A stretch of DNA of 64,000 nt from a virus (IMGVR_UViG_3300023504_000004:16857-80856), one strand, 5' to 3'; shown: positions 18,750-47,574, numbered from the stretch's first letter. Notes: generated from the sequence alone by a model not told the origin. Translations and numbers: made by a program.

Positions 18750-18971
18750 TTATTCACCGTCCTTTGGTTTAAAAGAGATGTCTATATTGAGATTTAATGC
18801 GTTACAGATTTCCATAAGAGTTGCCAAACGGGGGCTTCCACTCTGAAAAATTTTGCTTACTGCAGCCGGTGTAGAATCCATTTTGGCGGCAAGCTCTTTT
18901 ATGAGAATATTATTTTCGAACATATATTTACGAATATCCCATAAGACATCGTTTGGAGTATTGTAAACCAT
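18750..18971 (-). CDS. XRE-family helix-turn-helix transcriptional regulator (73 aa)
   Basis: The only convincing minus-strand gene. HTH reads 'ILIKELAAKMDSTPAAVSKIFQSG'. Divergent from the MazF-like gene, with operator-like repeats in the shared intergenic region. Confidence 0.75.
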   Translation of the reverse strand: MVYNTPNDVLWDIRKYMFENNILIKELAAKMDSTPAAVSKIFQSGSPRLATLMEICNALNLNIDISFKPKDGE

Positions 18972-19050
18972 AAGTCCCTCCTTCTATATCCTAAGTATAA
19001 AACAAAAAGGTTGATAAAACAATAAAAAAGTAAATAATAAGAGGAAAAGG

Positions 19051-19079
19051 TTGACAAAAAGATAAAAAGGTTGTATAGT
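19051..19079 (+). promoter_or_regulatory. Sigma-A-type promoter TTGACA-N17-TATAGT for the toxin gene, with 3 'AAAGGTTG' repeats
   Basis: TTGACA at 19051-56, a 17-nt spacer, then TATAGT at 19074-79. Operator-like repeats are 'aaaaggttgataaaac', 'aaaaggttgacaaaaag' and 'aaaaaggttgtatagtt' across 19005-19080. Confidence 0.6.
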
Positions 19080-19113
19080 TAGAGTATCAAAAGAAAGGAG
19101 AGGAAGTGAGAAT

Positions 19114-19473
19114 ATGGAAATGGAGCTTAAAAAATACGATATTGTGATAGCAGACTTTGGCGAAGATGAATTTGCTGGTGAACAGGCCGGTATTCGTCCA
19201 TGTGTTATTATTCAAAACAACACAGGAAATAAACATAGTTGCACAACAATCGTGATGGCGCTTACAACCAAAATTAAAAAGCTCAGACAGCCTACTCACT
19301 TCCTGCTGATTCCCGGAAGCGATAATGGCCTACGACAGGAATCGATGGTTCTTGGAGAATGTATAAGGCAGATTTCAAAAGAGAGAATCATTGGTAAGAT
19401 TGGTTCTGTTGAGAATACAGATGACAGATCAGAAATCAAGCGCGTCTACGACGCGAACTTCGGGGAGGATTAA
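19114..19473 (+). CDS. MazF/PemK-family toxin (mRNA interferase-like)
   Basis: N-terminus 'KKYDIVIADFGEDEFAGEQAGIRPCVIIQNN' matches the MazF/PemK signature (GDIv.vdF.p..G.EQ.G.RP.vvv). SD 'aaaggagaggaagtgagaat'. 119 aa. Confidence 0.7.
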   Translation: MEMELKKYDIVIADFGEDEFAGEQAGIRPCVIIQNNTGNKHSCTTIVMALTTKIKKLRQPTHFLLIPGSDNGLRQESMVLGECIRQISKERIIGKIGSVENTDDRSEIKRVYDANFGED

Positions 19474-19476
19474 AGA

Positions 19477-19746
19477 ATGGAAGGCTATGTTACGATGACG
19501 GCAAAGGAAGCTATGGAGTTAGTTGGAGAGGATTCTATCGTTTTAGTTTCAGTCCAGGATCTTACAAAGAAAAATACCCTCGCCAAGTTTTGTAAAAAGA
19601 AGGGTAGAGATTGCCAGAATTTTATTGACGAGGCAAAGTTAATTGCAAAGATCGAATGTGAACTCAGGGTTTTTAGCGAAAAGCAGCCAGACCCGATAGA
19701 CTTTGAACCAAGAGGATTTCTAAGAACGGTACTCTTAAGAGATTAA
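19477..19746 (+). CDS. Hypothetical protein, possibly a downstream-encoded antitoxin or partner
   Basis: 89-aa ORF starting 3 nt after the toxin stop (translationally coupled). No recognisable motif. Confidence 0.45.
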   Translation: MEGYVTMTAKEAMELVGEDSIVLVSVQDLTKKNTLAKFCKKKGRDCQNFIDEAKLIAKIECELRVFSEKQPDPIDFEPRGFLRTVLLRD

Positions 19747-19786
19747 TTGTCAAAATAATAACACGAACAGGCGTTCGAAAAAACTA

Positions 19787-19815
19787 TTGACAGAACAAGC
19801 GTTCGGGTATATAGT
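19787..19815 (+). promoter_or_regulatory. Sigma-A-type promoter TTGACA-N17-TATAGT upstream of the tRNA cluster
   Basis: TTGACA at 19787-92, 17-nt spacer, TATAGT at 19810-15. Flanked by the direct repeat 'caggcgttcgaaaaa' / 'caagcgttcgggtat'. Confidence 0.55.
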
Positions 19816-20015
19816 AAATATTGCCAGAAGGAAATAGGCAAATAAACCAAAAGAGCCTCTACACTGGGTTGCCGCCCATTGTGTAAAAGGCTCTTAGGTG
19901 CAAAAGCGGTCACCACAACTGCCATTGCGATATCATTATACATATTTTTTTCGAAAATCGCAAGGCATATCGCCAACTATTTCCAATTATTACCAATTTA
20001 ATAGAGAAAATATAT

Positions 20016-20087
20016 TGGGCCATCGCCAAAAGGTAAGGCACAGCACTTTGACTGCTGTATTTGCCGGTTCGAATCCGGCTGACCCAG
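20016..20087 (+). tRNA. tRNA, anticodon loop 'cTTTGac' giving UUG (Gln). One C·A mismatch in the acceptor stem.
   Basis: Hand-folded cloverleaf: acceptor tgggcca/tgaccca, D-arm gcc-aaaaggtaa-ggc, anticodon stem cagca/tgctg, T-arm gccgg-TTCGAAT-ccggc, discriminator g. Confidence 0.55.
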
Positions 20088-20256
20088 TGCGCTCGGACTT
20101 ATGTCCGGGTGTCCTAACGGTCGGCGTTAGGTTACATAAGTAGAGTACAAGCTGCTCTAGGTGTGTTTAGTGCGCGCAAAATACATTCACTTGTACAGGT
20201 TTGCCTTCTAATAGGTGTACCCATCATCGATTCCCGTCAGTCTCGGTGATGGTAAA

Positions 20257-20337
20257 GCTCCAATGGCGGAAAGGAAGACGCAGTGGACTCAAAATCCACC
20301 GATTTATATCGTGTGAGTTCGAATCTCACTTGGAGCA
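20257..20337 (+). tRNA. tRNA-Leu (anticodon CAA), type II with long variable arm
   Basis: Acceptor gctccaa/ttggagc, U8, 3-bp D-stem, anticodon stem gtgga/tccac with loop cTCAAaa, variable arm cgatttatatcgt, T-arm gtgag-TTCGAAT-ctcac, discriminator a. Confidence 0.65.
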
Positions 20338-20377
20338 TTCCTTTTTGGAGAATAAATAAGCGAAAGGAGTGAAGAAA

Positions 20378-20998
20378 ATGGATTACGAGATAGTAAGTGG
20401 TAACCAAAAGATTTATGTCAAATTGGATTCTGGTGGTCGGCCAGTAACATGTGGGAAATTTGAAAGAGGAAGATTTGAGATGAGTAAGGCAAAAAATATT
20501 ATAAAAAACCTTCCAAAACCTCTTCAAAAATTTCACTTCCGAATTGAGGCAATACCGGAAATTCCGAAAAAAGAAGATTCAACCACAAAACCAAAAGTAA
20601 TTGAAAATGTAGGTTATGTCCCGTCGAGCAATGTAACTCAATGGATAGAAAAGTTCGGTCAATGTGGAGATATTTTAAATGCTGCTATTGAAAGGCATTC
20701 CGAACTGGTAAAAAATCTTTCAGATCTGGATAAAGGTCTGACTGATCTTTTACATAGTGTTGAGTTAGAACGACCAAAGGATCTGTTTAAGGCTTGGATT
20801 ATTTACACGGATATCCGGACAAACAGACGGAAGAGAAGAGATGTTAAAGATGAGCTTCGAATTATAAGAGATGTGATTCATGGTGTTGATCCGGCTGTTT
20901 TACAAAGAGAGCATATAAAAAAATCAGTTGATGACTTAGTGAATCGAAAATACATATACAGAATCATCGAAGACGACGAAGAAAAAGAGAATAAGTAG
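20378..20998 (+). CDS. Hypothetical protein
   Basis: ATG 8 nt after 'aaaggag'. The listed GTG at 20369 abuts the SD. 206 aa. Confidence 0.55.
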   Translation: MDYEIVSGNQKIYVKLDSGGRPVTCGKFERGRFEMSKAKNIIKNLPKPLQKFHFRIEAIPEIPKKEDSTTKPKVIENVGYVPSSNVTQWIEKFGQCGDILNAAIERHSELVKNLSDLDKGLTDLLHSVELERPKDLFKAWIIYTDIRTNRRKRRDVKDELRIIRDVIHGVDPAVLQREHIKKSVDDLVNRKYIYRIIEDDEEKENK

Positions 20999-21677: not shown

Positions 21678-23174
21678 ATGAAGAGAAAAGTTATTGAAGA
21701 AGCTGTGTCGGTAGAGTCTTACTTAAGCGATATCTCAAACGAAACGATTAGCGACAATCAGGACGTACAGAGAAATTTCTGTTCGACAGAAGAATTTGAG
21801 GATGGAATTATTTTAACCGTACTTACTGGTGATTATCTTCCTTCCTTAATTATCGGAGAAATTAATTCCGGAGGAATTACGAGAAAATATCTTATCGACG
21901 GAATGCAGAGAACATCGGCACTGAGAAGATTTAAAAATGGCGCTCATAAAATTAGAAAGAAATGCGAAGACAGCGTTGTTGAATATCAGACGAAGAAGCT
22001 CGATAAAAACGGAGTTGTTGTTCGAGACGAGAATGGAGAGCCGGTTTGGGAGATTGCAACATTCGATGTTAAGGGAAAGGGATACGAAGATCTTCCTGAA
22101 GAATTGAAAAGAGAGTTTGATAAATTCCAGGTAAAGCTTGCAACATTAACAGGTTACAAAACAATGTCGGAAGTCAGCAAAAAGATTAGACAGTTCAATA
22201 TGAATACAGGAATGAATACCAATCAGAAGAGTTTTACTTACCTTGATATGTACGCCAGAAAGGTAAAAGCAATTGGATCTAAAGGCTTTTTCAAGGAATC
22301 AACTGCACTTAAGAGCAAACAGAATGATAAAGGAGCTTGCGAGAGCATGATTCTCAGGTCGATTATGACTGTATTCCACTTAGATTCTTATAAGAAAAAT
22401 GCAAAAGACGTAGCTATTTTTCTCAATACAAATGCAAGTGACGCTGAGTTTAACTTATTTCAGCATCTTGCAGATAGTCTGTGCGATGTAGTCGGCGATG
22501 CATATAAGGAATTGTTCACTCAGAAAAATGTCCCGATTTGGTTTCCAGCATATAATCATTTCTTAGAGTTAGGCATTGAGGAAAAAGAATTCAGAAGATT
22601 TCTTGATGCTTTTAAAGAGAATTTACATACGAGCACGGTTAAATGTGATTACGAACAGAAAGATCTTAACGGAGATATTACTTGGGACAAACTCGATGGA
22701 TTGCGTGGAACAACTGACAATGGTCTTGTAAAGGCAAAAATCGATACGCTCTGCCAGTTAATTGACGATTTTTTTGGAATTAAAGCTGAAGAAAAAACCG
22801 AAATCGAGGCGGTAGAAGAAGAGAATAATAATGAAGTAGTGGAAACAAATGAAGTAGAGATTGATCCGGTATTAAAGTTTGCACAGGACAACGTAAGAGA
22901 AACTATTGAACCAGAAGACATTGCATTATATAAGGATTTTTTGAGCGATTTTGTAAAAGATGATTCACATATTTATGAAGCAGGAGAAGAAACGGTAATT
23001 GCTTTAATGGCATATGCATCTGATATTGAAAAAGATACAGAATTCAGCGAATGGATAGACAGAGAAAATTCCAAAAATAATACATATAGTCCAAGTCACA
23101 AAACAAACTTTACATATTTAAAACGTGATTTTGATGAGTTTTTAGAGAAGAGAAATGGAGGTAAAGCAGCATGA
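21678..23174 (+). CDS. DUF262 / ParB-like nuclease-domain protein (GmrSD N-terminal-domain-like), 498 aa
   Basis: Motif 'YLIDGMQRTSALRRF' resembles the DGQQR signature of DUF262/ParB-like NTPase domains. SD 'aaagggagattaatc'. Confidence 0.45.
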   Translation: MKRKVIEEAVSVESYLSDISNETISDNQDVQRNFCSTEEFEDGIILTVLTGDYLPSLIIGEINSGGITRKYLIDGMQRTSALRRFKNGAHKIRKKCEDSVVEYQTKKLDKNGVVVRDENGEPVWEIATFDVKGKGYEDLPEELKREFDKFQVKLATLTGYKTMSEVSKKIRQFNMNTGMNTNQKSFTYLDMYARKVKAIGSKGFFKESTALKSKQNDKGACESMILRSIMTVFHLDSYKKNAKDVAIFLNTNASDAEFNLFQHLADSLCDVVGDAYKELFTQKNVPIWFPAYNHFLELGIEEKEFRRFLDAFKENLHTSTVKCDYEQKDLNGDITWDKLDGLRGTTDNGLVKAKIDTLCQLIDDFFGIKAEEKTEIEAVEEENNNEVVETNEVEIDPVLKFAQDNVRETIEPEDIALYKDFLSDFVKDDSHIYEAGEETVIALMAYASDIEKDTEFSEWIDRENSKNNTYSPSHKTNFTYLKRDFDEFLEKRNGGKAA

Positions 23175-37659: not shown

Positions 37660-38520
37660 ATGCCAGTACATGATGATCTTGGTCTTCGCATGAAGACTTT
37701 TTATGAAGAAATTCCAAAAACAAAATTAATGCGGCGCTGCCCTGTTGCGATCAGAATTGACGGAAAAGCTTTTCACACGTTTACGCGCAAATTCCAGAAG
37801 CCATTTGACGAGATCTTGATCGAATCTATGCAGGAAACTATGAAATACCTGTGTGAAAATATCCAGGGATGCGTCTTAGGCTATACCCAGTCTGATGAGA
37901 TCACATTGATCTTGGTTGATTATAAGAAGCTGACATCTGTAGCCTGGTTCGACTATGAAGTTCAGAAGGTTTGTAGTATTGCGGCTTCCATGGCAACTAT
38001 GGCATTTAATAGAAATTTTAGAGATACAATTGATTTAGCTTACGATCAGGAATTTCGTGATTTAGGCTTAAATAAAGAACCAGATAAGAGTCAGGAAGAT
38101 GATTATAATAAAAAGTTTGAAGTATTAGAGAAAAAGTATGACAAGTATTATTCTCAAATCGATAAGGCGATGTTTGACGCCCGTTGCTTTAGCATTCCAA
38201 AAGAAGAAGTAGCAAACCTGATCTATTGGCGGCAGCTTGACGCCACACGCAACTCTATTCAAATGGTTGGACAAGCCAATTTCTCACATAAGGAACTTCA
38301 GAATAAGTCTTGTAACCAGATTCAGGATATGTTAATGGTTCAGAAAAGCATTAATTGGAATAATTTCCCGACTTATCAGAAGAGAGGAAGCTGTTGTATT
38401 AAAGAGGAGAAAATGATTGAAGACCAGATGAGAAGTAGTTGGATTATCGATACAGAAATTCCAATCTTTAAGGGTATTGATAGGGATTATGTTGAGAAAC
38501 GAATTCTTATTGGAGAATGA
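37660..38520 (+). CDS. Thg1-like protein (tRNA-His guanylyltransferase family 3'-5' nucleotidyltransferase)
   Basis: N-terminal 'CPVAIRIDGKAFHTFTRKF' matches the Thg1 signature (RxDGrxFxxFt). Total size matches Thg1/TLP. SD 'aaattggaggattaaaatt'. Confidence 0.6.
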   Translation: MPVHDDLGLRMKTFYEEIPKTKLMRRCPVAIRIDGKAFHTFTRKFQKPFDEILIESMQETMKYLCENIQGCVLGYTQSDEITLILVDYKKLTSVAWFDYEVQKVCSIAASMATMAFNRNFRDTIDLAYDQEFRDLGLNKEPDKSQEDDYNKKFEVLEKKYDKYYSQIDKAMFDARCFSIPKEEVANLIYWRQLDATRNSIQMVGQANFSHKELQNKSCNQIQDMLMVQKSINWNNFPTYQKRGSCCIKEEKMIEDQMRSSWIIDTEIPIFKGIDRDYVEKRILIGE

Positions 38521-39282: not shown

Positions 39283-39648
39283 ATGGTTGAAGAGCTGCAA
39301 GGCATTACTCTTACAAAAGATAATATCCAGTTTCCTGCGCATTTTTACAGAACAAAAACAGGGAAAATTGGTGTTAAGGAGGTTACAAATCAGAAAGTCG
39401 TAGATGAAATAAAGCGAGGAATTGAGTGGCTACGGAGTGAAAAGAATGAATATTATTGGTTTACAAAATATGGAGACCTCTTTCTAATTATATTTAAACA
39501 CGATGGAGGCGGAAAATATAACGTGTTGGTTACGAGGGACTGGTATGAAACAGATATCCCATTCGAAGAAGATGATTACAAATGGGATGAGAAAAGGCTT
39601 TCAGAAGATGATGACGACATGGGGTGGGGAGGAGATGATAATTTATGA
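39283..39648 (+). CDS. Hypothetical protein. The ORF is open upstream to 39082 and there encodes a zinc ribbon, but no canonical start codon is present.
   Basis: Listed ORF from the first ATG. The in-frame upstream stretch (39082-39282) encodes ...YCDQCNSELEITKEDTHIGWLGARFVTCPCCGEES... It follows the SD 'tttcaggaggtg' (39088-39099) but contains no ATG, GTG or TTG. Confidence 0.45.
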   Translation: MVEELQGITLTKDNIQFPAHFYRTKTGKIGVKEVTNQKVVDEIKRGIEWLRSEKNEYYWFTKYGDLFLIIFKHDGGGKYNVLVTRDWYETDIPFEEDDYKWDEKRLSEDDDDMGWGGDDNL

Positions 39649-41258
39649 CGGATTTAGAAACTTGGTTCCTTGATTTTGGCGATGATCATATTTTCAGATT
39701 ATACGATCCATTTTCAATTCGCGTAGTGGAAAAAGTGCGAATTAATAATATGATTGAACTTCCAAACAAAGATGTACTAATTGAATATTCGGAAGTTAAT
39801 AGCGAAGAAGATTTTAATGCAGAATGGGGTAAAGCACCTTTATGTTATAAAAACTCAGTGAGATCAAATTGGAGTATCATCCGCATGATAATCAATTTTG
39901 TTCAAATGCAACTGCCTTACCAGCAACCGAGTAAAGGAGAAAAAATGAGTTGGAATCCTGTGCTGAATAAATTTATTGAAATAAAAAATACATATAAAAA
40001 TAAAATTGGCGAACCAACCTATTCTTATAAATCTGGCTATACAGATGAATCAAAAACATGTCTCGAGCGATGGGTTGAAGAGTTAATTGAAAAATTCCCA
40101 GATAAGCAATTCCAGCAGTACGAAGAACTTCTTTCTTGCTTGGAAATGAATCAATGGAATCAGTTTTTGATAATTAGATATGCCAGATATAGTAATGTAT
40201 ATGACGGTGAGGTCGAGTCTTCTGGCGAAGATTTTTGGGACAGATATAGCGGATTTTATAGAGAATGCAGGAGTGTTGTTATTGACGTTGTAAATGATAA
40301 AATTGTATTAGCACCATTTAAGAAATTTTTTAACATCAATGAACTTGAAGAAACTCGTCTGGAGAATGTAGAACGCAGAATTGCTACCGCGACAAATGTT
40401 GAATTTTCTAATAAACTTGATGGCTCAATGCAATCGGCAACGTGGTATGATGGTCGGATTATTATGGCTGGAAGTCAGGCAATTGATCCAAGTAATTCAT
40501 GGAGATTGCAGGAAGGTTATAGAATGCTTGATTTGCGTCCAGGTTATAAGAGAATGCTGACCGAACACCCTGGTCTGACTTTTATTTTTGAATATATTTC
40601 GCTTAAAGACGCTCATGTTGTTAAATATAAAAAAGAGCAAGAGGGACTATATTTGATTGGCGTGAGAAACAATAATGACGGCAGAGAGTTACCGTACCGT
40701 TCTGTTTTAGATGTCGCATATGTTTATAATATTCCAACAACGGAGATTTTTGATAAAACATTAGACCAGGTAATGGCAGAACTTGATGAAAAATCTTCTG
40801 ATGAAGCAGAAGGGTTTGTCATTAACATTGATGGATATAAGGTTAAAGTCAAGTACAATGACTACGTTCATATCCATAAAGCTTTATCTAAATCATCCTC
40901 AATAAATCTAATCATTAAGTCTATTGCAGACGATACGTTCGACGACCTTCTTTCGAAACTTCCAGAAGCTTATCATGACAATGTAAAAAGAGTTGCAAAT
41001 ATTGTTTTTAATTATATTTGTGACACTGAGAATATCATTAGAAAATATTATAACGAAGCGCCAAAGAACGATAAAAAGAAATTTATGATTTGGGTCAATT
41101 CTAATGTTCCCAAAAAATATCGCGGATTCTGTCGATCTTTGTATCTCGGAGATCCAATTAATGTATTAAAAAAACATAATGGTTCTGGCTATTTAAAACT
41201 TAAAGATATGGGTATCGAGGATTATGGAAAACTATTTGTAAACAATGAGAACGAATAA
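39645..41258 (+). CDS. ATP-dependent RNA ligase (Rnl-type nucleotidyltransferase)
   Basis: Motif I 'SNKLDGSMQSA' (KxDG). Motif IV/V 'EGFVINIDGYKVKVKYNDY' (EGxV...KxK). 537 aa. Start overlaps the upstream stop (ATGA). Confidence 0.65.
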   Translation: MTDLETWFLDFGDDHIFRLYDPFSIRVVEKVRINNMIELPNKDVLIEYSEVNSEEDFNAEWGKAPLCYKNSVRSNWSIIRMIINFVQMQLPYQQPSKGEKMSWNPVLNKFIEIKNTYKNKIGEPTYSYKSGYTDESKTCLERWVEELIEKFPDKQFQQYEELLSCLEMNQWNQFLIIRYARYSNVYDGEVESSGEDFWDRYSGFYRECRSVVIDVVNDKIVLAPFKKFFNINELEETRLENVERRIATATNVEFSNKLDGSMQSATWYDGRIIMAGSQAIDPSNSWRLQEGYRMLDLRPGYKRMLTEHPGLTFIFEYISLKDAHVVKYKKEQEGLYLIGVRNNNDGRELPYRSVLDVAYVYNIPTTEIFDKTLDQVMAELDEKSSDEAEGFVINIDGYKVKVKYNDYVHIHKALSKSSSINLIIKSIADDTFDDLLSKLPEAYHDNVKRVANIVFNYICDTENIIRKYYNEAPKNDKKKFMIWVNSNVPKKYRGFCRSLYLGDPINVLKKHNGSGYLKLKDMGIEDYGKLFVNNENE

Positions 41259-41285: not shown

Positions 41286-42215
41286 ATGACAATCAAAGAC
41301 ATTGAAACAAAACTTTCGCCTAAACCATCACTCTATGTTATGTGCGGGCTTTCCGGAAGTGGAAAATCCACCATTGCAAAAGAGTATCAGAAAAAGATTC
41401 CTGGTAGCGTGATTATCTCTTCTGATGAGATTAGAGAGGAATTGTGTGACGGAAACCGTGCGGATCAGAGTAAGAACGACGAAGTGTTTAGAGTATTTCA
41501 CGATAGAATCCGAAAAAATTTGGAGAAACATAAGAGTGTAATCGTAGATGCAACCAATATTACAATGAAGTCCCGTAGAGCTATTCTGGGCAAAGTAAAC
41601 GGTCTGGATATTAACAAGATTTGCCTGATCGTTCCGAAACCATACGAGCAATGCCTGGTTGACAACAAACAGCGTGAGTGGCCGGTTCCTGATGAGGTGA
41701 TTGAACACCAGCGCAGTCGGTTCCAGATTCCATTCAAGGAGGAAGGTTGGACGGAGATTAGAATTGAGAGTGGATTTAAGGATCGGCCATATAGATTCGA
41801 TGAGATGATGAAAGGGTATGATCAGAAAAGTCCATATCATGCCTTTACTTTAGACGAGCATTGTCAACTTGCGGCTGACATGTTCTTCGACATCAAAGGG
41901 TATAGACAGCCATGGTATGCTGGAGCACTACTGCATGATGTCGGAAAACTGTTTACGCAGACTATCGATGAAAACGGTGTAGCTCATTACTACTCGCATG
42001 AAAACGTCGGCGCATATGAGATTCTATCATTAAAGCCGAATGAAGAGGATATTGTAGACATTTGTTTCCTGATTAATTATCACATGCTACCGTTCAGTTG
42101 GAATCTTAATTGGCGCGAGCCGACGAGAACTATGAAGAGATGGCAGCGTAGGTTTGGAGAAGAGAAGTATCAAATGTTGTTAGACTTCCATGAGTGTGAT
42201 ATGGCTATGGCGTAG
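41286..42215 (+). CDS. Polynucleotide kinase (P-loop) fused to an HD phosphohydrolase domain
   Basis: Walker A 'CGLSGSGKST', Walker B-like 'VIVDATN'. C-terminal HD motifs 'LDEH', 'LLHDVGK', 'YSHEN', 'INYHM'. SD 'aaaacgaggtaaaa'. Confidence 0.65.
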   Translation: MTIKDIETKLSPKPSLYVMCGLSGSGKSTIAKEYQKKIPGSVIISSDEIREELCDGNRADQSKNDEVFRVFHDRIRKNLEKHKSVIVDATNITMKSRRAILGKVNGLDINKICLIVPKPYEQCLVDNKQREWPVPDEVIEHQRSRFQIPFKEEGWTEIRIESGFKDRPYRFDEMMKGYDQKSPYHAFTLDEHCQLAADMFFDIKGYRQPWYAGALLHDVGKLFTQTIDENGVAHYYSHENVGAYEILSLKPNEEDIVDICFLINYHMLPFSWNLNWREPTRTMKRWQRRFGEEKYQMLLDFHECDMAMA

Positions 42216-45154: not shown

Positions 45155-45541
45155 ATGGAAGATTTAGACCTTAAGCCTTTACATGGTCAAATCAAAAAAG
45201 TTGAAATGACATCTATATCTGGCTACATAAAAAATCAAAAAATATATTTAGAGTTATATATAAAAGCAGAAACGGAGACAAAAATTTATAAATTTAAAAT
45301 TGCTGGGTTTGATACCGGAATCAAGTTTGTAAATGCGTATTTTGATGAAACGCAATCAATAAAAGATTGTGGAGAGCACTTACCGCCTATTAAAACGATT
45401 GAAAAGAAATTAGAGTTAAACGGGAAACAGTATTCAATTGATGATATTACGTTTATGGGAGCCGAAAGCAAACCTAAAGAAGTGACCATGGCTGATATCG
45501 AAGAAAAATTTGGTTGCAAAGTTAAGATTATAGGAGAATAA
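45155..45541 (+). CDS. Hypothetical protein
   Basis: ORF preceded by 'gggagaataaatatATG'. Confidence 0.5.
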   Translation: MEDLDLKPLHGQIKKVEMTSISGYIKNQKIYLELYIKAETETKIYKFKIAGFDTGIKFVNAYFDETQSIKDCGEHLPPIKTIEKKLELNGKQYSIDDITFMGAESKPKEVTMADIEEKFGCKVKIIGE

Positions 45542-46367: not shown

Positions 46368-46428
46368 ACAATATGGTGTGGTGCTGGATTTCGATTCAGT
46401 GCTACACCAGAAAAGAGAATAAATATAT

Positions 46429-46500
46429 AGCGGATTAGTGTAATGGTTAGCACGGGAGACTTTGGATCTCCAGACGTGAGTTCGAATCTCACATCCGCCG
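46429..46500 (+). tRNA. tRNA, anticodon loop 'cTTTGga' giving UUG (Gln-like). A1·C72 mismatch.
   Basis: Hand-folded: acceptor agcggat/atccgcc, U8, D-arm gtgt-aatggtta-gcac, anticodon stem ggaga/tctcc, variable agac, T-arm gtgag-TTCGAAT-ctcac, discriminator g. Confidence 0.55.
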
Positions 46501-46564
46501 TTAATAAATACAATTTGGGAGGTAGATACTTATTTATAGCGATTGGAAAAACGAATATAAAGAT

Positions 46565-47431
46565 ATGGGAGATTATTATATTGGATATACTCCTAAAAAC
46601 AAAACTGAATACTATTTTGACAAAGAATGTTTTGATGTTGTGAAACAGTATAAATGGAGAGTCAACAGCGATTTATATCCAATAACATTTGTTGATGGAA
46701 AAGAAATTTCTATGGTTACATTACTTTTTGGAAATAGTCCTCATACCTATAAAAATGGTAAGAAGAATGATTTACGAAAAGAGAATATATGTAATATAAA
46801 AGGATTTAAAGATAAAGGACGTGTTTTCCTTAATGGATATGTGTCAATTTATATGCCAGAACATAAACGAGCATTTGATAATGGATGCGTATATGAACAT
46901 ATCCTTGTAGCAGAACGAACGTTGGGCAGAGAATTGAAGCCTGATGAATGTGTTCATCACAAAGACCAAAACAGAACAAATAACTCACCAGAAAATTTAA
47001 TGGTCTTCGCGACAAATAATGATCACGTAGCTTTTCACGGAGGAGCAAAAGCGATTCTTACTGACGAAGGAAATTATAAAACAGAAAGATTGGGAATTCC
47101 TGTATATATTTATAGAAATAGAACCGCCAAAGATATAAAAAACAACATTAAAGATACTGGCAGTGTTTATGTTCCAGGATACAATTTATGCCCTTGCTGT
47201 AACGAAAATATTAAATCAAGCGATGCAAAAATGTGCTTAGAGTGTTACAGAAAATTACGAGTAAAAAATATTCCCAAAAAGGAAGAATTAGAAGCGTTGA
47301 TCTATCAAGAATCTTTTGAAGAAATTGGGAGAATGTATAAAGTGTCTGGAAAGGCTGTAACAAAATGGTGTAAAAAATATGGTTTACCATCTCGACGTTC
47401 AGAAATAAATAAAATTTTAGCGACAAAATAA
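46565..47431 (+). CDS. HNH homing endonuclease
   Basis: 'CVHHKDQNRTNNSPENLMVFATNNDHVAFH' is an HNH core. C-terminal 'CPCC...CLECY' zinc finger and an HTH-like tail. Lies between two tRNA genes. Confidence 0.7.
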   Translation: MGDYYIGYTPKNKTEYYFDKECFDVVKQYKWRVNSDLYPITFVDGKEISMVTLLFGNSPHTYKNGKKNDLRKENICNIKGFKDKGRVFLNGYVSIYMPEHKRAFDNGCVYEHILVAERTLGRELKPDECVHHKDQNRTNNSPENLMVFATNNDHVAFHGGAKAILTDEGNYKTERLGIPVYIYRNRTAKDIKNNIKDTGSVYVPGYNLCPCCNENIKSSDAKMCLECYRKLRVKNIPKKEELEALIYQESFEEIGRMYKVSGKAVTKWCKKYGLPSRRSEINKILATK

Positions 47432-47442
47432 AGTCGCTATAT

Positions 47443-47531
47443 GCGAACTTAACTCAACTGGTAAGAGTCACGGCCTTATAAGCCGTATGCCCTGGCAAGG
47501 TTTAAACTCGGTTCGACTCCGAGAGTTCGCA
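47443..47531 (+). tRNA. Type II (long variable arm) tRNA, apparent anticodon UAU (loop cTTATaa), 89 nt
   Basis: Acceptor gcgaact/agttcgc, D-arm actc-aactggtaa-gagt, anticodon stem acggc/gccgt, ~20-nt variable arm with internal tgcc/ggca stem, T-arm ctcgg-TTCGACT-ccgag, discriminator a. Confidence 0.55.
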
Positions 47532-47574
47532 CTGCAGCAATGCAAATATAATATTTTAAAGGAGGATTTCTATT

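Follow-up and report, generated by a model that had tools for sequence, protein, structure and literature searches.

A candidate structured small RNA between the tRNA-Gln and tRNA-Leu genes of a gut phage

Spacers between neighbouring tRNA genes are typically short and poorly conserved. They lie between co-oriented tRNAs and are removed by RNase P and RNase Z cuts, as would be the case for the spacer considered here, but this one is long, GC-enriched, conserved and covarying, and the equivalent gap in relatives can be as small as 2 nt. It separates a tRNA-Gln gene from a tRNA-Leu gene in a 64,000-nt stretch of viral DNA, the whole of which we refer to as the window. An earlier interpretation made from this DNA (the sequence-only reading) had offered three options for the spacer, namely a small non-coding RNA, a set of processing signals or a degenerate tRNA. 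The question raised by the locus is which of these, if any, the spacer represents and how such an RNA could arise.

The two tRNA genes and the fold between them

Both flanking tRNAs are genuine and ordinary. The sequence-only reading had proposed a Gln(UUG) and a Leu(CAA) tRNA at this position, together with a run of ARAGORN and Rfam over the region. Both programs call both tRNAs and call none in the spacer, and the two RF00005 scores (Table 1) lie well above the gathering threshold of 29 bits, and each tRNA has an assigned anticodon. The C·A acceptor mismatch described for the Gln tRNA is real, and is placed by the Rfam alignment at C5·A68 in an acceptor stem that also has U1-A72 and G73. In a tally of acceptor stems over 30 matched loci, three of them from sister clades, C5·A68 is the commonest state (17/30), and the alternative states in relatives are U5-A68 (L022 and L041; related loci are given by their L numbers) and C5-G68 (L045, L026 and L025). 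Since the mismatch lies between two Watson-Crick states, we do not regard it as the sign of a pseudogene. Neither tRNA encodes CCA, the bases after the discriminators being UGCG for Gln and UUCC for Leu. Codon counts over the window give 124 CAA vs 249 CAG for Gln, which makes CAA the minor one of the two, and UUG accounts for 15% of the Leu codons.

At 48% GC the spacer is richer than both the genome (36%) and the leader that precedes the tRNAs (38%). Computed folding agrees with the earlier description of the spacer as structured, since the + strand reaches -62.2 kcal/mol against -44.2 +/- 3.8 kcal/mol in 200 dinucleotide shuffles (z = -4.69), none of which folds as well, and the fold of the - strand is weaker (z = -2.6). 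The three strong hairpins of the sequence-only reading are present and conserved as H2, H4 and H8, but its count was too low, as H1, H5 and H7 bring the number to six. The outer stem in which it had nested H2, CUUAUGU/ACAUAAG, has to be abandoned. It is outcompeted by H1 (-13.3 vs -25.8 kcal/mol; pair probability 0.00 vs 0.98), and of the two it is H1 alone that shows covariation, with a compensatory replacement of G-C by A-U. H5 is the least certain helix, as the consensus there differs from the minimum free energy (MFE) structure of the single sequence (pair probability 0.19 vs 0.74 for the MFE alternative), and the closing stem is likewise uncertain.

Table 1. Coordinates of the main features in the window
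Feature	Position	Strand	Details
LexA-type (Cheo) box 1, CGAACAGGCGTTCG	19764-19777 (core 19765-19776)		perfect GAAC-N4-GTTC; 10 nt upstream of -35
Promoter, sigma-70-type, TTGACA-17-TATAGT	19787-19815	+	11/12 matches
LexA-type box 2, GAACAAGCGTTCG	19793-19805 (core 19793-19804)		perfect GAAC-N4-GTTC; between -35 and -10
Leader hairpin	19851-19895	+	three tiers, apical GGG-UUGCCG-CCC; z = -5.1 in the window
tRNA-Gln(UUG)	20016-20087	+	ARAGORN and Rfam RF00005, 59.0 bits; ARAGORN/Rfam ends 20015/16-20087/88
Structured spacer RNA (predicted)	20088-20256	+	169 nt (168-169 nt); six hairpins and a 4-bp closing stem
H1	20089-20112	+	10 bp; starts 2 nt past the tRNA-Gln discriminator; G-C replaced by A-U (compensatory) at spacer positions 8/17
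H2	20113-20131	+	7 bp, CCUAACG/CGUUAGG, loop GUCGG; 100% paired; A29-U39 to G·U in 8/16 copies
H4	20141-20159	+	7 bp, UAGAG(UA)/(UG)CUCUA, loop CAAGC; partly within the invariant run
H5 (least certain)	20161-20186	+	10-bp interrupted hairpin, from RNAalifold consensus
H7	20198-20221	+	8 bp, loop NCUAAY; compensatory pairs C-G/U-A at 116/127 and U-A/C-G at 118/125
H8	20222-20251	+	10 bp; ends 5 nt before tRNA-Leu; U-A to U·G to C-G at 136/161; pair probability 0.99
tRNA-Leu(CAA)	20257-20337	+	ARAGORN and Rfam RF00005, 56.4 bits; type II, A73
First protein gene, same inferred operon	20378-20998	+	206 aa, no known family; RBS AAAGGAG at 20363-20369
Thg1-like	37660-38520		
Rnl1-type ligase	39645-41258		
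Kinase + HD phosphatase	41286-42215		

Conservation and distribution of the spacer

The comparison that bears on the fold comes from 16 distinct copies of the spacer in related gut phages (90-99% identity), which were gathered via relatives of the neighbouring 206-aa protein and with k-mer probes. In the RNAalifold consensus of these copies 99.3% of the 873 pair cells are standard pairs and the unpaired cells are confined to three pairs; when the partners are slid by 1-3 columns as a control, standard pairs fall to 31-46%. Double compensatory changes are found at four pairs (8/17, 116/127, 118/125 and 136/161) in 17 cells, a cell count reached by 0/500 shuffles, although relatedness can inflate this control. 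Because all copies are at least 90% identical, the covariation amounts to about three to four independent events. Another 12 pairs vary on one side only with the pairing kept, mostly by transitions to or from G·U, and since G·U would be A·C on the other strand, such one-sided transitions preserve pairing only in a + strand RNA. The loops are at least as conserved as the stems, with variable columns at 8/56 unpaired and 24/112 paired positions, and the longest invariant run (18 nt, 20136-20153) spans an unpaired linker. The locus as a whole is a mosaic, in which the flanks drop to 60-80% identity in some relatives and the spacer never falls below 90%. This high identity may in part reflect a recent spread of the Gln-spacer-Leu cassette rather than long purifying selection. 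We think it very probable that the spacer is a selected structured RNA. The fold of the + strand, the compensatory changes and the conservation of loops alongside stems favour the small non-coding RNA among the three options of the earlier reading, and the conservation of loops and linkers suggests that the RNA is recognized sequence-specifically by a protein or by another RNA.

Exchange of neighbouring elements can be seen directly in some loci. In L045, L046 and L049 (~1384-1465) and in L024 (2374-2460) the tRNA-Leu(CAA) 3′ of the spacer has been exchanged for a clearly different tRNA-Leu(CAA) with the spacer retained, and in L041 the downstream protein gene differs as well. The tRNA/spacer units behave as modules in recombination.

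The spacer is a credible candidate for a new RNA family that is narrowly distributed, clade-specific, and of a known but unexplained kind. Covariance model R1 recovered the known copies only, with no second copy elsewhere in the window or in related loci and no match to the spacers of sister clades. A blastn search with the 'distant' setting found no match to the spacer in 50,697 GenBank phage records, and 18-20-mer probes found near-identical copies only, in one IMG/VR contig and three metagenome contigs, and no copy in reference genomes. None of the 4227 models of Rfam 15, which cover T-box, Y RNA-like/YrlA, 6S, tmRNA, riboswitches, hammerhead, twister and others, matches the spacer at the gathering threshold or at E<=10, the only hits being the tRNAs themselves and noise-level ones that overlap the tRNAs. 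ARAGORN found no tmRNA.

What occupies the same slot differs from clade to clade. It holds tRNA-Gln, 2 nt and tRNA-Met in L030-35, tRNA-Gln alone in L040 and no tRNA in L037, and in L027-29 the order is Gln, an unrelated AT-rich spacer of 191 nt, Met, and Tyr/Leu. As related phages have their tRNAs 2 nt apart, the spacer is not needed for tRNA processing, and the 'processing signals' option is disfavoured by these relatives, in which Gln and Met lie 2 nt apart or a single tRNA fills the slot. The 191-nt spacer of L027 is much less structured (z = -2.4), with terminal 9-bp hairpins that adjoin the tRNAs.

Several details of these sister loci can be recorded here. Both terminal hairpins of the L027 spacer (2123-2313) carry GGACGC apical sequences, and the spacer holds internal GAAC/GTTC half-sites, so that it may contain an internal regulated promoter. 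A Tyr(GUA) tRNA of type II with an enlarged anticodon loop (L027, 2391-2477) is called by ARAGORN in pseudogene mode only, the Met(CAU) tRNA of L028 (1878-1951) has an aberrant T arm, and a tRNA of L036 (2008-2089) has a 4-base 'anticodon', tccg.

Proposed release of a small RNA and the alternatives to it

In our proposal the locus would be a small tRNA operon heading an early transcription unit. The transcript would start at about 19822, from a strong host-type promoter, and would consist of the leader, tRNA-Gln(UUG), the spacer, tRNA-Leu(CAA) and an mRNA for the 206-aa protein, a sigma-like factor and a GmrSD-like nuclease; no terminator was found between tRNA-Leu and the 206-aa gene. Maturation of tRNAs in Firmicutes involves a cut at +1 by RNase P and, in precursors that lack CCA, a cut by RNase Z just 3′ of the discriminator. 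Since no CCA is encoded, RNase Z should cut after the discriminator, which for tRNA-Gln would be after G20087, and RNase P would cut before G20257, so that the two tRNA-maturing cuts together would free a discrete spacer RNA of ~169 nt. Its terminal hairpins would shield it from exonucleases, the distance to the cut being 2 nt for H1 at the 5′ end and 5 nt for H8 at the 3′ end, and with both ends protected the RNA should persist. The outcome would be a small stable RNA that accumulates, a by-product of tRNA maturation put to use in the manner of the T4 RNAs RNAC and RNAD. That a small RNA from the Gln-Leu tRNA operon is released by tRNA trimming and is stable is, as an explanation of the whole, one that we consider probable; that the released and stable RNA has a function of its own we would put at a little above an even chance.

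The closest analogues would be T4 RNAC/RNAD and the GOLLD/ROOL RNAs, and the spacer RNA would work most like T4 RNAC/RNAD, without being homologous to them. RNAC and RNAD have gone unexplained for 50 years. Both are small RNAs of the tRNA region of T4 and still have no known role (PMC3014915, PMC9697503). These species 1/2 RNAs are likewise non-tRNA RNAs inside a phage tRNA cluster and are transcribed with the cluster, and the spacer has the same kind of placement, between tRNA-Gln and tRNA-Leu on the same (+) strand. The phage is also T4-like in having an Rnl1-type ligase together with a polynucleotide kinase/phosphatase-like repair set. In contrast, blastn 'distant' against the GenBank phages shows no homology, the host phylum and the phage lineage differ, and T4 RNAC/RNAD are documented transcripts whereas the spacer RNA is predicted only. 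GOLLD and ROOL are structured non-coding RNAs of phages and prophages, many of them in Firmicutes, that occur 'often near tRNA islands', and GOLLD sometimes embeds tRNAs (PMC12286853). However, they are 500-800+ nt long, pseudoknotted and assembled into multimeric cages, whereas the spacer has 169 nt and simple hairpins, and neither a search of the whole window at the Rfam gathering threshold nor a local one at E<=10 gives a GOLLD/ROOL match. Abundant non-coding RNAs beside tRNAs have also been described in phage K (PMC9241854). The spacer shares with GOLLD, ROOL and the phage K RNAs an association with tRNA islands, and it is homologous to none of them.

A simple alternate explanation is that the spacer is a passive structure, whose hairpins insulate the tRNAs from each other and from the mRNA by allowing independent folding or by guiding or blocking RNases, and that the excised piece is degraded and functionless. 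This explanation is supported by the observation that H1 and H8 adjoin the tRNAs, as hairpins also do in the unrelated L027 spacer, and no trans target has been found. We nevertheless consider it unlikely. A 2-nt gap between tRNAs suffices in relatives, and six hairpins over 169 nt far exceed any need for insulation. The loops and linkers are conserved like the stems, and the 18-nt invariant run crosses an unpaired linker. The L027 sister spacer, moreover, is AT-rich and little structured, so that structure is no general requirement of the slot. The derivation of the spacer from one or more tRNA genes, exapted or decaying and with their tRNA features lost, would be attractive in that sister clades have Met or Met-like tRNAs between Gln and Leu/Tyr, the slot tRNA-Met being an obvious example of a source. 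In addition, 169 nt is about two tRNA lengths, the 10-mer CATAAGTAGA is common to the spacer and to the anticodon arm of the L028 Met-like tRNA, and ARAGORN at a 70% threshold draws a cloverleaf over the first 80 nt. That setting, however, also gives obvious false positives, and the spacer had already been called 'not tRNA-shaped' in the sequence-only reading, a description that holds: ARAGORN makes no call in default or pseudogene mode, and Rfam gives no tRNA match in 20088-20256 even at E<=10. The D-loop and T-loop consensus sequences are absent, Smith-Waterman comparison with 11 syntenic/window tRNAs stays at shuffle level except for one case (p~0.02, uncorrected), and the compensatory changes show hairpins that are maintained and not decaying. 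As neither ARAGORN nor Rfam calls a tRNA in the spacer, and as it does not significantly resemble any syntenic tRNA, the 'degenerate tRNA' option is disfavoured, and we regard such an origin as improbable. A MAFFT alignment of H7 and H8 to tRNA-Met arms is apparent only and is not significant.

In principle, the 3′ end of tRNA-Gln could be formed by a self-cleaving ribozyme (theta/HDV-like or of a new class), with the kinase/phosphatase and the ligase handling the cyclic-phosphate ends. In gut Caudoviricetes, Bacillota phages among them, theta ribozymes are found immediately 3′ of tRNAs without CCA and together with RNA ligases (PMC10879173). The present genome resembles those genomes in being that of a gut phage with CCA-less tRNAs, Rnl1 and a kinase+HD protein. 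There is a G, G20089, two positions past the discriminator G20087 and so inside the +/-5 nt around a tRNA 3′ end where a theta cleavage-site G would lie, a trivial agreement by itself, and a very permissive scan for the HDV topology yields a candidate starting at 20089. Such permissive candidates nevertheless occur at the shuffle rate (17 vs a mean of 10.7 and a maximum of 26), and the one at 20089 has a P2 made of G·U pairs and a C·C mismatch in P1, puts its 'catalytic C' within H4 and is incompatible with both H1 and H2. A theta descriptor was built from the Supplementary Data of PMC10879173 (nested double pseudoknot; P1 of 6-7 bp, 7-bp P2, 3-bp P3; L3 = U-NC-NCGY, with P1.1 to GN; J4/2 = C-N-R-A, which carries the catalytic C) and scanned over 425 kb on both strands; it recovers 4/4 controls and gives 0 matches, strict or relaxed, in the window and 67 loci. 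There is no Rfam match at E<=10 to HDV, hammerhead, twister, pistol or hatchet ribozymes in the spacer, nor are the core motifs of these present. Although the spacer shares with theta ribozymes its position 3′ of a CCA-less tRNA in a ligase-encoding gut Caudoviricetes genome, it is about three times the size of the listed examples (~50-63 nt) and has no double pseudoknot or conserved core, and a ribozyme seems to us very improbable. More improbable still would be an element acting as DNA, such as a site (attP or other) at which the nearby integrase recombines, an origin, or a MITE/REP-type mobile insertion rich in hairpins. Integration into tRNA genes is common, a gene for a tyrosine recombinase is found 1.3 kb upstream, and the spacer is clade-specific with a GC content above its surroundings. 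The many conserved G·U pairs and transitions argue otherwise, being A·C on the other strand, as does the much better folding of the + strand. The absence of a second copy from the window and related loci is a further point against it, and the core 20-mer occurs in 0 of 185,579 reference genomes, so that the spacer is not a multicopy host repeat.

Other identities were considered and set aside. All ORFs overlapping the spacer run through the tRNAs, and the substitutions are compensatory and not codon-like, which excludes protein coding. UACAU is the site cut by Firmicute MazFs; it occurs twice in the spacer, with one copy lost in L057, and once in each relative's leader, and with 110 occurrences in the window vs 100 expected it shows no depletion. 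The idea of a MazF link finds no support. A type III toxin-antitoxin system (ToxI-like) was rejected because the spacer has no tandem or direct repeat family, and a protein ORF and the promoter separate it from the MazF-fold gene 600 nt upstream. A 22-nt antisense match (82%) to 45464-45485, with E = 6.7, was treated as chance.

The preferred reading of the spacer, a small RNA released from the tRNA operon, would matter for the following reasons. We know of no explanation for the recurrence of structured RNAs beside phage tRNA genes. The spacer would be a compact and tractable case, with 169 nt, predictable ends, a plausible SOS inducing signal and natural 'deletion' relatives, and since relatives are integrated in culturable Lachnospiraceae it would be tractable for asking what such RNAs do. 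It would also add a candidate family to the poorly charted repertoire of non-coding RNAs in human-gut phages. If it is only a spacer, the finding is an ordinary one. At the speculative end, and with a low probability in our estimate, the spacer RNA might be the first representative of a new phage small-RNA class, produced by the tRNA-processing enzymes and acting in trans after an SOS-controlled early operon fires. It might then serve as a decoy for, or an inhibitor of, either a host defence directed at RNA or the MazF-type toxin that the phage itself encodes, or it might regulate lysis-lysogeny. It might otherwise be a ribozyme of undescribed fold.

The proposed operon and its surroundings

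The promoter is probably SOS-controlled, because two LexA-type boxes are present. GAAC-N4-GTTC is the consensus of the Bacillus/Clostridium (Gram-positive) LexA box (PMC4234289). The two sites are the only ones in the 64-kb window and are conserved in all close relatives, and the arrangement of TTGACA with the boxes is common to all relatives. Alternatively, the boxes could be operators for a phage repressor. The presence of a sigma-like factor in a LexA-boxed operon recalls the LexA-controlled plasmid factor SigN of B. subtilis pBS32 (PMC6751061). The same inferred operon encodes a GmrSD_N/DUF262-type protein (21678-23174) with a weak NsnA match in PADLOC, which is possibly a phage-borne nuclease against modified DNA.

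The leader hairpin is a candidate cis-acting leader RNA that is more widespread than the spacer. It has no match in Rfam, and its z-scores in nine other clades range from -3.2 to -8.4. It is kept as a structure in all clades, much more distant relatives included, and is seen in L024, L027, L028, L030, L036, L037, L040, L001 and L008, across clades that share no spacer RNA. The sequence of the lower stems is entirely different between clades and their pairing is always kept; the apical GGUG-UUGGCG-CACC motif shows compensatory variants, and the window's apical motif is found as its reverse complement in L024, L025 and L045.

The window belongs to a large phage of ~150-200 kb, probably one of Lachnospiraceae. 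Its distant relatives (<60% aa) are Herelleviridae-type phages of Bacillus and Clostridioides. The phage is probably temperate, because closer relatives sit within Lachnospiraceae genomes (Eubacterium segne, 81%; Konateibacter, 71%). A conserved module order consists of the integrase, an HTH gene on the - strand, a MazF-like toxin, an ORF of ~90 aa and 360-780 nt of non-coding DNA with the promoter at its start, and continues 3′ of the non-coding region with a ~200-aa protein, a sigma-like factor and a GmrSD-like protein. Within 18750-19746 of the window the HTH gene (- strand) is divergent from a MazF/PemK-fold toxin gene (19114-19473), directly 3′ of which lies an 89-aa ORF (19477-19746), and all of the examined relatives have this trio. 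The product of the 89-aa ORF may act as a downstream antitoxin; neither it nor the 206-aa protein has an informative Pfam, PHROG, PADLOC or PDB match. In L030 (1-383) a gene for an IS605-family TnpB (OrfB/Cas12f-like) lies just upstream of the HTH-MazF module.

The RNA-repair cassette that the sequence-only reading had placed downstream is real (Table 1), and a functional link between it and the tRNAs or the spacer is a conjecture. The classical T4 repair pair is Pnkp/Rnl1, to which the Thg1-like 3′-5′ polymerase is an unusual addition. A second pair of tRNAs lies at 46428-47532, with a different tRNA-Gln(UUG) that has an apparently unpaired A1·C72 and, as its partner, a 90-nt 'tRNA-Ile(UAU)' with a long variable arm. 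The slot tRNA-Gln of the L030 clade resembles this second tRNA-Gln of the window and not the first. An HNH endonuclease ORF (46565-47431) sits between the two tRNAs of the second pair, and a homologous HNH gene stands in place of tRNA-Met in the IMG/VR relative L002.
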